Assembly (NCBI GenBank): GCA_963845565.1
Contig: CAWJSJ010000002.1
Location: 2,400,001 to 2,464,000, forward strand
Length of the DNA stretch: 64,000 bases
Direction of reading: 5' to 3'
Origin: an uncultured Methylomirabilota bacterium
Lineage (GTDB): Bacteria; Methylomirabilota; Methylomirabilia; Methylomirabilales; 2-02-FULL-66-22
This document shows positions 13,416 through 23,957 of the stretch, piece by piece. The stretch's first letter is position 1. Each line of letters opens with the position of its first letter. Made by a program: the position numbers and the translations under genes. A model generated the notes under the pieces. The model did no database searches and had not been told where the DNA came from. It saw only the letters and a program-made list of their open reading frames with translations.

Positions 13416-13464
13416 AAATTTCTTTTAAAAAGTAGTTGACAAGGTTCGTGCACACGAGTATAAA
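13416..13464 (+). promoter_or_regulatory. rRNA operon promoter with UP element
   Basis: AT-rich tract, TTGACA (13436)-17 bp-TATAAA (13459). Confidence 0.85.
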
Positions 13465-13566
13465 GAGAATCCCACGGCGGGAGGTTCCACGGCTGATGGG
13501 AACCGAAGATCCCGCGGGGACGTTCTAGAAGTGAAGCGGCGGGAGGTTTTTGAGCCCGCCCCTTTT

Positions 13567-13578
13567 TGTTCTCTGACA
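13567..13578 (+). promoter_or_regulatory. Leader boxA antitermination element
   Basis: TGTTCTCTGACA resembles TGCTCTTTAACA; preceded by a boxB-like hairpin. Confidence 0.6.
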
Positions 13579-13680
13579 ACAGAATATCATTGCTACGAGC
13601 TTGTGGGTGGACACATGAGTAATTACACCTCCGTCCGCCAGGACGGGGTGTCCGAGATCTCTCGTAAGAGAGACCGTATA

Positions 13681-15248
<1,568 letters not shown>

Positions 15249-15463: not shown

Positions 15464-15540
15464 GGGCCTTTAGCTCAGCTGGCTAGAGCGCACGCTTGAT
15501 AAGCGTGAGGTCCCTGGTTCGATCCCAGGAAGGCCCACCA
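15464..15540 (+). tRNA. tRNA-Ile(GAT)
   Basis: Cloverleaf, anticodon arm CACGC-TTGATAA-GCGTG, encoded CCA. Confidence 0.97.
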
Positions 15541-15618: not shown

Positions 15619-15694
15619 GGGGATGTAGCTCAGTTGGGAGAGCACCTGCTTTGCAAGCAGGGGGTCAGCGGTTCGATTCCGCTCATCTCCACCA
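15619..15694 (+). tRNA. tRNA-Ala(TGC)
   Basis: Cloverleaf, CCTGC-TTTGCAA-GCAGG, encoded CCA. Confidence 0.97.
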
Positions 15695-15741
15695 TGAGAG
15701 TGTGCTGCGCGTAAGAGTGTCCCCAGGAACATGTGGGGATT

Positions 15742-15753
15742 TGCTCTTTGACA
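15742..15753 (+). promoter_or_regulatory. Spacer boxA
   Basis: TGCTCTTTGACA upstream of 23S. Confidence 0.8.
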
Positions 15754-15800
15754 ACTGAATAGCGATCGGGTGTCTATATTGTTTCTCCGAGCAGAAGTGG

Positions 15801-18825
<3,025 letters not shown>

Positions 18826-18861
18826 CATTTTTCTTCTTTCATTCGATACTTTCGGGAAGCA

Positions 18862-19218
18862 ATGAGACACCCGATTCGCTATTCGTCTTTGCCAATGCGA
18901 TGCGTCGCTTTTGTGCTTGGCTTAAGCGGTACGCTGGTGCTTGGAGCGGACGATGTGTTGCCGGCGAACCAGGGAAAGCCCGAGGTGGCTACCCAGGTTC
19001 AAAAGGCGCCGGTAAAGTCGGCGGGAAAAGCCGATGTGAATACGGCGAGTGTCGACGAGCTCTCGCGACTGCCGGGGATGAACGTTCAGACCGCCGAAAA
19101 GATCATCGGAAATCGTCCGTACCGAAAGCTGGACGAACTGATCACCAAGAAGGTGCTGGGCAAGAAAGAGTTTGCGCAGGTTCGGGAGTATATCGTGATC
19201 AGGTCCGGCAAGAAGTGA
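18862..19218 (+). CDS. ComEA-like helix-hairpin-helix DNA-binding protein with signal peptide, in the 23S-5S spacer
   Basis: Hydrophobic N-terminus (CVAFVLGLSGTLVLGA), linker, then DVNTASVDELSRLPGM...AEKIIGNRPYRKLDEL...FAQVREYI (HHH_3 pattern); alternative start ATG 18895. Confidence 0.85.
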   Translation: MRHPIRYSSLPMRCVAFVLGLSGTLVLGADDVLPANQGKPEVATQVQKAPVKSAGKADVNTASVDELSRLPGMNVQTAEKIIGNRPYRKLDELITKKVLGKKEFAQVREYIVIRSGKK

Positions 19219-19247
19219 TGTGTCGCGGTTGGCTCGAGTCCTGAAGT

Positions 19248-19365
<118 letters not shown>

Positions 19366-19372
19366 TTTTTTC

Positions 19373-19416
19373 AAAGGGCCTCATGCGTTTTAAGCATGAG
19401 GCCCTTTGTTTTTCTT
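19373..19416 (+). terminator. rRNA operon terminator
   Basis: 14-bp stem AAAGGGCCTCATGC/GCATGAGGCCCTTT followed by a T-rich tail. Confidence 0.9.
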
Positions 19417-19557
19417 ACGGCAGCGGTCTTGCGCGGCACCGGATGGCATTTCTGCCGGATTCTGGCGTGTCCTCGCCAACGCCCTGGCGGGAGATGTCAA
19501 TTGACAGGGATGCAAGCGGTGTGTTAAATACTTGGATCAAAATGGCCGGAAAGACGG

Positions 19558-23707: not shown

Positions 23708-23784
<77 letters not shown>

Positions 23785-23879: not shown

Positions 23880-23957
23880 GCGCCCGTAGCTCAGCCCGGA
23901 TAGAGCAACGGCCTCCGGAGCCGTGTGTCGGGTGTTCAAATCACCCCGGGCGCGCCA
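23880..23957 (+). tRNA. tRNA-Arg(CCG)
   Basis: ACGGC-CTCCGGA-GCCGT, CCA. Confidence 0.95.

Follow-up and report, generated by a model that had tools for sequence, protein, structure and literature searches.

How might a protein be made from an open reading frame (ORF) that lies inside a ribosomal RNA (rRNA) operon, with its first possible start codon buried in the stem that flanks the 23S rRNA? We addressed this question for an ORF in the spacer between the 23S and 5S rRNA genes, located on the + strand of a 64,000-nucleotide (nt) stretch of the genome of an uncultured Methylomirabilota bacterium (contig CAWJSJ010000002.1, positions 2,400,001–2,464,000; hereafter the window). An earlier note on this DNA had placed the first start codon, ATG 18862, within a processing stalk of the pre-23S rRNA and had proposed that translation may require rRNA processing that releases an ORF–5S fragment. 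To our knowledge, bacterial rRNA operons are thought to yield stable RNAs only (rRNA and transfer RNA, tRNA); transcripts that the rRNA antitermination complex makes are regarded as not being translated. The arrangement described here is that of a conserved cellular gene lying within an rRNA spacer. Overall, we favour, with somewhat more than even confidence, the reading that a real comEA-like cassette is inserted between the stalk and the 5S gene, is co-transcribed in the pre-rRNA and is started at ATG 18895.

A ComEA-like gene in the 23S–5S spacer

The conserved gene (18895..19218, + strand), delimited by the ORF list, the alignment, the ratio of nonsynonymous to synonymous substitution rates (dN/dS) and the Pfam family PF12836, encodes 107 amino acids (aa) followed by a stop codon, and the longer reading (18862–19218) encodes 118 aa. 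Inspection of the sequence and the alignment revealed an N-terminal MR followed by a hydrophobic stretch (MRCVAFVLGLSGTLVLGADD; 18895..18954, + strand), and a basic residue with a hydrophobic stretch of about 15–20 aa, then a variable linker, was present in all 14 aligned orthologs; the N-terminus is a probable Sec signal peptide or membrane anchor. The remainder is dominated by a helix-hairpin-helix (HhH) domain of the HHH_3 family (PF12836), which spans residues 43–100 of 107 (19021..19194, + strand), scores 52.5–52.9 bits against a cut-off of 27 and is found in 14 of 14 aligned orthologs. Weaker matches were to the PsbU and ComEA models. Only HhH families were hit, and the scores remained under the NCBIfam cut-offs for ComEA (26.2 vs 152.35 bits for TIGR01259 and 17.8 vs 53.1 bits for TIGR00426). 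A profile built from the 14 orthologs matched the Thermus ComEA-related structure 2duy (2.4e-10) and ComEA 8dss (9.6e-9). In the AlphaFold model, the predicted local distance difference test (pLDDT) score was above 90 over residues 45–103 and below 50 over the N-terminal stretch, and the top Foldseek matches were again 2duy (template modelling score 0.83 on the target, root-mean-square deviation 1.7 Å) and 8dss_B, with modest E-values (3e-3 and 5e-3, respectively). Cluster members are named 'ComEA family DNA-binding protein', 'competence protein ComEA' or 'helix-hairpin-helix domain-containing protein' in the sources, and the same genome encodes a ComEC homolog (PF03772, 227 bits).

Comparison of the coding sequences revealed dN/dS values of 0.15–0.60 in 27 of 28 pairs from the genus (one pair was saturated) and of 0.20–0.27 in six of ten pairs from family f7 (four were saturated). 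Synonymous sites of the gene are near saturation, and variability at codon positions 1, 2 and 3 was 0.315, 0.232 and 0.486, respectively. The ORF is under purifying selection and carries the recognised HHH_3 domain; judged from its sequence, the ORF is a genuine gene with a signal-peptide-like N-terminus and one ComEA-type HhH domain of the DNA-binding type.

The location of the gene is also conserved. Among 41 genomes (that of the window, G000, and 40 relatives), we found 15 ortholog loci; the 5S gene adjoined all 15 and the 23S 3' end adjoined 14, the contig of the fifteenth beginning inside the ORF. The same genomes held four paralog loci without rRNA nearby. Of the loci found in 151 sampled genomes of the phylum, the 16 with E <= 6e-33 (families f1, f2 and f7) were all between 23S and 5S, and the top 13 from family f9 (E ~1e-22) were nowhere near rRNA; these tallies include one unpublished genome, G080, on which no claim depends. 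In the public genome collection, rRNA flanks were present at 10 of 53 loci, all ten with Methylomirabilota-like rRNA, and the 43 loci of other phyla had no rRNA flanks. In an f8 genome from another order of the class (L131; G081:C8, ~1120–1500), an HhH gene fills the ~380-nt 23S–5S spacer, with its ORF beginning ~29 nt past the 23S end. The rRNA ends of eight whole-operon loci were located by blastn. At every orthologous locus examined, in four Methylomirabilota families, the gene is located between 23S and 5S. ORF-less spacers of ~55 nt were found in f4 and f5 (one genome each, from the window's own order), and four f9 genomes had short ORF-less spacers of ~70–110 nt.

In quick maximum-likelihood trees, a single branch had 23 of 23, then 24 of 24, spacer proteins on the same side (Shimodaira–Hasegawa-like approximate likelihood ratio test, 91 and 89, respectively), with the free-standing paralogs of the genus grouping with f9. 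These trees rest on a short alignment and have an arbitrary root and a long branch for f8; they therefore agree with a single capture without proving it. Several Methylomirabilota families appear to have inherited the cassette arrangement vertically. The f7 proteins are named Candidatus Methylomirabilis by the sources. A literature search, with subscription journals outside its coverage, returned no description of a protein gene in the 23S–5S spacer of these bacteria.

Two further observations concern these genomes. The free-standing ComEA-like paralog of the window's genome (L002; G000:C6:6460-6735), which shares 44% identity, lies ~0.65 kilobases (kb) upstream of an S-adenosylmethionine (SAM) riboswitch (L002:2432-2544); this pairing is repeated in the relative L024, and in the tree the paralog falls with the homologs of f9 rather than with the spacer gene. 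In the f5 genome (L128 / L119, G024:C97), the 23S 5' end was not found at the expected distance and a 71-nt second copy of 23S positions 2724–2794 is located beyond the 5S gene; an insertion or rearrangement is possible.

The processing stalk and the start codon

The duplex at the 5' end of the spacer is the conserved boxA-proximal processing stalk of 23S rRNA. Co-folding of 15740–15810 with 18815–18900 yielded one continuous two-strand stalk of ~60 base pairs (bp). Its 5' arm (15756..15809, + strand; supported by co-fold and covariation) consists of a distal helix (15756–15791) and a proximal helix (15793–15809), and its 3' arm (18816..18885, + strand) of a proximal helix (18816–18832), an internal loop of 18 nt (18833–18850) and a distal helix (18851–18885). 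The pairing of 15757–15775 with 18865–18884 proposed in the earlier note was reproduced with its one bulge, at 18875; that of 15778–15790 with 18852–18863 was also recovered, the co-fold giving 15777–15791/18864–18851, and the proximal helix pairs 15793–15809 with 18832–18816. A repeat search independently detected an 11-nt perfect core (15765–15775/18865–18875) and the 23S helix-1 pairing (15795–15808/18817–18830). ATG 18862 is paired with 15779–15777, and GGGAAG, this ATG and the next seven codons are all within the duplex, as had been stated.

The identification of this duplex as the pre-23S processing stalk held, with an energy far beyond that of shuffled sequences and compensatory changes in relatives. 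The stalk energy was −76.5 kcal/mol, compared with a mean of −36.4 (standard deviation 3.5, best −50.2) when the 3' strand was shuffled 200 times; with longer flanks it was −104.2 vs −66.6 ± 3.5 kcal/mol (20 shuffles), and the stalks of six operons of the genus gave z values of −8 to −13. Standard pairs were retained in 322 of 366 pair cells of these six operons, with both-sided changes at 6 of 61 pairs, four of them clear and central and two doubtful; in family f7, 203 of 270 cells were paired and both-sided changes occurred at 7 of 54 pairs. These counts come from a custom script in which the structure was taken from one member, which favours that structure. The stalk is conserved in 11 operons, and the boxA-like sequence GCTCTTTGACAA, located directly 5' of it (15743..15754, + strand; a single exact copy in the window), is nearly invariant across them; we take this sequence to resemble the Escherichia coli rrn boxA consensus. 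A second boxA-like element, GTTCTCTGACAA, is located in the 16S leader (13570–13581). The same stalk also folds in the f4 relative, the one ORF-less stalk that was folded (−93.8 vs −55.3 ± 3.2 kcal/mol), where the end motif CTCTATTC is followed by the 5S gene 14 nt on. More generally, ORF-less relatives have the same stalk-end motif and their 5S gene starts 12–14 nt later; the gene is therefore a cassette between the stalk and 5S.

Stems flanking 23S rRNA are cleaved by RNase III, as stated in PMC6582327. The window's genome encodes an RNase III homolog, with a full-length match to TIGR02191 (1–218, E 6e-35) of 122 bits, the curated cut-off being 166.25. This homolog (L125; G000:C2:2572128-2572763) is part of an open frame of 425 aa, roughly double the length that is usual for the enzyme.

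Comparison of nine distinct genus-level sequences revealed a start codon at the 18895 position in all nine (ATG in eight, TTG in L013); the next residues are R-R, R-C or Q-R, ahead of the hydrophobic stretch. In agreement with the earlier note, ATG 18895 is located 10 nt past the stalk, which ends at 18884/18885, and has no Shine–Dalgarno sequence; the stalk-end motif CGCTATTC (18877..18884, + strand) is followed by the pyrimidine-rich 10-nt linker GTCTTTGCCA (18885..18894, + strand). The start is exactly 10 nt past CGCTATTC in seven of the nine sequences; L010, at 15 nt, and L013, at 4 nt, are the exceptions. Conservation within the genus does not extend to the in-frame ATG inside the stalk (18862..18864, + strand): an in-frame stalk ATG occurs in the window and L013 alone, seven of nine sequences have no start codon at the 18862 position, and in L004 and L008 the frame is closed by a stop downstream of it. 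The window carries CAATG-AGAC where relatives have CAGGGTGGAT, and ATG 18862 exists because of these window-specific stalk substitutions, which are matched on the 5' arm. GGGAAG (18854–18859) is only 2 nt before ATG 18862 and is the conserved stalk arm in six of six genus operons. On these grounds, ATG 18862, the first start codon of the earlier note, is probably not the functional one, and GGGAAG, its putative Shine–Dalgarno sequence there, is better read as part of the stalk. The functional start in this genome is most likely ATG 18895; that ATG 18862 is buried is probably a coincidence.

Genome-wide, GGAG/GAGG showed an approximately twofold peak at −13 to −9 of candidate starts (672 of 1635, vs 413 in the control), and because this peak is only about twofold, the missing Shine–Dalgarno sequence before 18895 is unremarkable. 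A count restricted to the window (19/146 vs 50/373) was discarded as uninformative owing to spurious ORFs. The first three codons, ATGCGACGC (18895–18903), are nucleotide-identical in six of nine genus sequences, synonymous positions included, a possible sign of constraint at the RNA level near the start codon. Annotation is affected as well: rRNA spacers are commonly masked, and different gene callers place the start of this gene differently (118 aa vs 107 aa).

Transcription and proposed translation of the spacer gene

The operon is complete within the window. On the + strand, it comprises 16S rRNA (13681..15242; RF00177, 1611.5 bits), whose 3' end is the anti-Shine–Dalgarno sequence CACCTCCTTT, tRNA-Ile (GAT; 15464..15540) and tRNA-Ala (TGC; 15619..15694), both detected by ARAGORN and RF00005, an uninterrupted 23S rRNA (15801..18826; RF02541, 2947.2 bits, model positions 1–2925) and, after a 23S–5S spacer of 422 nt, 5S rRNA (19249..19365; RF00001, 103.4 bits). 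The whole genome (5.36 Mb, 6 contigs) contains one 5S match, and this is therefore its only rRNA operon. A likely rrn promoter, TTGACA-N17-TATAAA, read by eye and preceded by an A/T-rich stretch, is located at 13437..13465 (+ strand), and the terminator scan placed the intrinsic terminator of the operon, a 15-bp stem with a T-run, at 19372..19418 (+ strand), the strong terminator site itself being given as 19372–19408. Two more tRNA genes are found ~4.3 kb downstream of the operon (23708–23781 and 23880–23954).

A scan of 18500–19500, with a consensus of the sigma-70 type only, returned no sigma-70-like promoter on the + strand and no terminator-like site before 19372. Since the only 5S gene of the genome is located downstream and neither a terminator nor a sigma-70 promoter lies between, the gene is transcribed within the pre-rRNA, which upholds the earlier proposal that the ORF RNA comes from the rRNA transcription unit; on this sequence evidence, RNA of the spacer gene must be a piece of the rRNA precursor.

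Public RNA libraries contain the region. Six metatranscriptome runs hold 25–33% of the spacer's sampled words, RNA-library contigs (Logan) cover the ORF in four of four runs from four studies, and one 379-nt contig of a close relative spans 23S into the ORF (18732–19056); in run X18, 13 of 30 bins were covered. Summed depth fell from ~89 at 18795–18880 to ~5 in the ORF body in run X19 and from ~11 to 1.5–8 in X5, and was flat at ~43 in X15. We did not count this drop as a sign of a stalk arm that outlives the ORF RNA, the values being per-contig depths from mixed strains and X15 being flat. Likewise, 86-nt unitigs stopping at 18880 in two studies were rejected as RNA ends; they are assembly bubbles, with variants at 18840/18845/18850 plus 30 nt. 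One X5 contig joins 18824 to 19250, skipping 425 nt, and most likely stems from a co-occurring short-spacer relative without the ORF.

Accessibility of the start codons was predicted by partition-function folding with and without the 5' arm, so that all values are thermodynamic predictions only. The predicted probability of being unpaired rose from 0.05 in the precursor to 0.84 without the 5' arm for ATG 18862, and was unchanged for ATG 18895 (0.67 vs 0.65) and for the region from −15 to +12 around it (0.25 vs 0.24). Across the genus, the conserved initiation region gained accessibility in three of six operons (0.33 to 0.59, 0.44 to 0.60 and 0.24 to 0.51), and in four of five f7 operons the start codon was predicted to be open in the precursor and to become paired once the fragment is freed. 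No consistent predicted unmasking of the conserved start was seen across the 11 operons; predicted folding supports processing-gated translation only for the non-conserved ATG 18862.

On the reading that we favour, the comEA-like gene would be transcribed as part of the pre-rRNA, its own promoter or terminator not being recognisable, and its messenger RNA (mRNA) would be the 5' portion of a long 5S precursor left after the 23S stalk is cut. Translation would begin at ATG 18895 on the pyrimidine-rich linker, independently of a Shine–Dalgarno sequence. ATG 18862 would be an incidental product of stalk drift, and the overlap of the gene 5' end with the stalk would reflect the position of the cassette. 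Any effect of the stalk would more likely be to limit translation, by keeping the region within the precursor particle, than to act as a strict on-switch. Only tentatively, with a probability clearly below even, do we extend this to a general rule for Methylomirabilota, in which ComEA-like mRNA would arise only as a by-product of rRNA maturation, one per 23S/5S, with stalk cleavage setting the amount that is translated.

Several observations weigh against the favoured reading. The family distribution is patchy, the gene being missing from the f4, f5 and four f9 spacers, and a single capture therefore needs several losses. The RNA evidence consists of assembled contigs, with possible DNA carry-over. 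The 118-aa form occurs in three other members of the 90%-identity cluster, L013 has ATGATG upstream of the TTG at its conserved position, and the conserved start of f7 (ATG in eight, GTG in two and TTG in one of 11 sequences) is located inside the stalk at +31 to +35, which fits the earlier note's idea better. The 23S terminus reads TTGACC, and the A/T-rich loop contains weak −10-like hexamers. The 118-aa forms and the f7 start, along with the encoded RNase III homolog and the predicted opening of ATG 18862 in the 3' fragment alone, speak for the model of the earlier note, in which translation starts at ATG 18862, locked in the stalk with GGGAAG and the first seven codons, and an RNase III cut with loss of the 5' arm frees the ORF–5S fragment. 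We nevertheless regard this model as quite unlikely: the position lacks a start codon in seven of nine genus sequences, with a downstream stop in two, the ATG was born of compensated stalk substitutions, and GGGAAG, 2 nt from it, is a conserved stalk arm rather than a spaced Shine–Dalgarno sequence. Furthermore, after a cut near the 23S end a distal helix of ~34 bp would still join both strands, and the predicted closing of the f7 start in the freed fragment is the opposite of unmasking.

The bases at the 23S end could alternatively act as an internal promoter together with the A/T-rich stalk loop, giving rise to a separate ORF(-5S) transcript that is not a processing by-product and that, lacking the 5' arm, would have an unpaired leader. 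By eye, TTGACC is followed by −10-like hexamers at 17–20 nt in the window (TTCGAT at 17 nt, GATACT at 20 nt) and in several relatives (for example TTGACC-N18-TATGAT in L004 and -N17-TATCAT in L009). However, TTGACC is the universal 23S end, the stalk partly explains the loop bases, the window hexamers are weak (3/6 at 17 nt and 4/6 at 20 nt), relatives differ in where they have such hexamers and how good these are, the sigma-70-type scan of 18500–19500 detected no promoter-like site on the + strand, and RNA-library unitigs cross the 23S/spacer junction (18795–18880) at a greater depth than the ORF body; we consider such a promoter unlikely. Direct translation of the nascent or unprocessed pre-rRNA from ATG 18895, with stalk cleavage irrelevant, agrees with the position of this ATG outside the duplex and with the equal predicted accessibility of its initiation region with or without the 5' arm. 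We assign it a low probability, since the stable helix reaches to 10 nt before the start, inside the usual footprint of the 30S subunit, precursor rRNA is packed by antitermination and assembly factors in other bacteria, and in three of six genus operons predicted accessibility goes up when the arm is removed. The idea that the ORF has no protein product, being open by chance or through an RNA-level constraint on the spacer, draws on two overlapping long open frames (18819–19244, + strand, and 18922–19374, − strand), which indicate how easily frames arise in a G+C-rich spacer. These overlapping frames look like by-products of the G+C-rich coding sequence, and one exceeds the HhH frame in only two of eight relatives' operons (L030 and L032), whereas all 24 examined spacers retain an intact HhH frame despite near-saturated synonymous sites, with dN/dS well below 1, the highest variability at third codon positions and a recognised domain; we find a product-less ORF barely credible.

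Significance and comparison with known systems

An ordinary protein gene has been kept intact in the 23S–5S spacer across several families despite synonymous saturation, with its start abutting the 23S stem. Under the tentative general rule given above, Methylomirabilota, including nitrite-dependent methane oxidisers, would couple the making of an exported DNA-binding protein to the production of ribosomes. If the protein is made from a precursor fragment, the locus would offer a natural system for studying pieces of pre-rRNA as mRNA and the competition between processing enzyme and ribosome, and would raise the question of why a secreted DNA-binding protein should be made in step with ribosome synthesis.

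Among known systems, the E. coli 9S RNA, the 5S precursor left once RNase III cuts the 23S stalk, is comparable in that the putative fragment would run from the 3' arm of the stalk via 5S to the terminator, one per rRNA transcript; it differs in its leader, which is ~400 nt here and tens of nt in 9S, and which here encodes a conserved protein. RNase III-dependent unmasking of ribosome binding sites occurs in E. coli adhE and in messages of phages lambda and T7. As in these cases, the start region is in or beside a long duplex of the RNase III type formed with distant upstream sequence; in contrast to them, the duplex is an rRNA stalk, the conserved start of the genus is outside it, and the predicted accessibility is unchanged on removal of the arm.

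ORFs within rRNA genes are represented by 23S intervening sequences (S23p family) and by intron-encoded homing endonucleases. The spacer gene shares with them a protein encoded in the rRNA transcription unit, which would likewise be expressed from precursor-derived RNA, whereas its location is the 23S–5S spacer beside an uninterrupted 23S (model 1–2925), and its product is an ordinary cellular ComEA-type protein with vertical inheritance, not mobility. With the ComEA/ComE1-type DNA receptors of natural transformation, which are periplasmic or membrane-anchored, the protein has in common an N-terminal hydrophobic leader and a C-terminal HHH_3 domain; unlike ComEA, it scores under the NCBIfam cut-offs, branches separately from the free-standing paralogs found in the same genomes and is encoded in an rRNA operon. 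Finally, the gene resembles spacer tRNA genes, such as those for tRNA-Ile and tRNA-Ala in the 16S–23S spacer of this operon, in that a second product would be obtained from the pre-rRNA by processing, with the difference that this product would be an mRNA and not a stable RNA.

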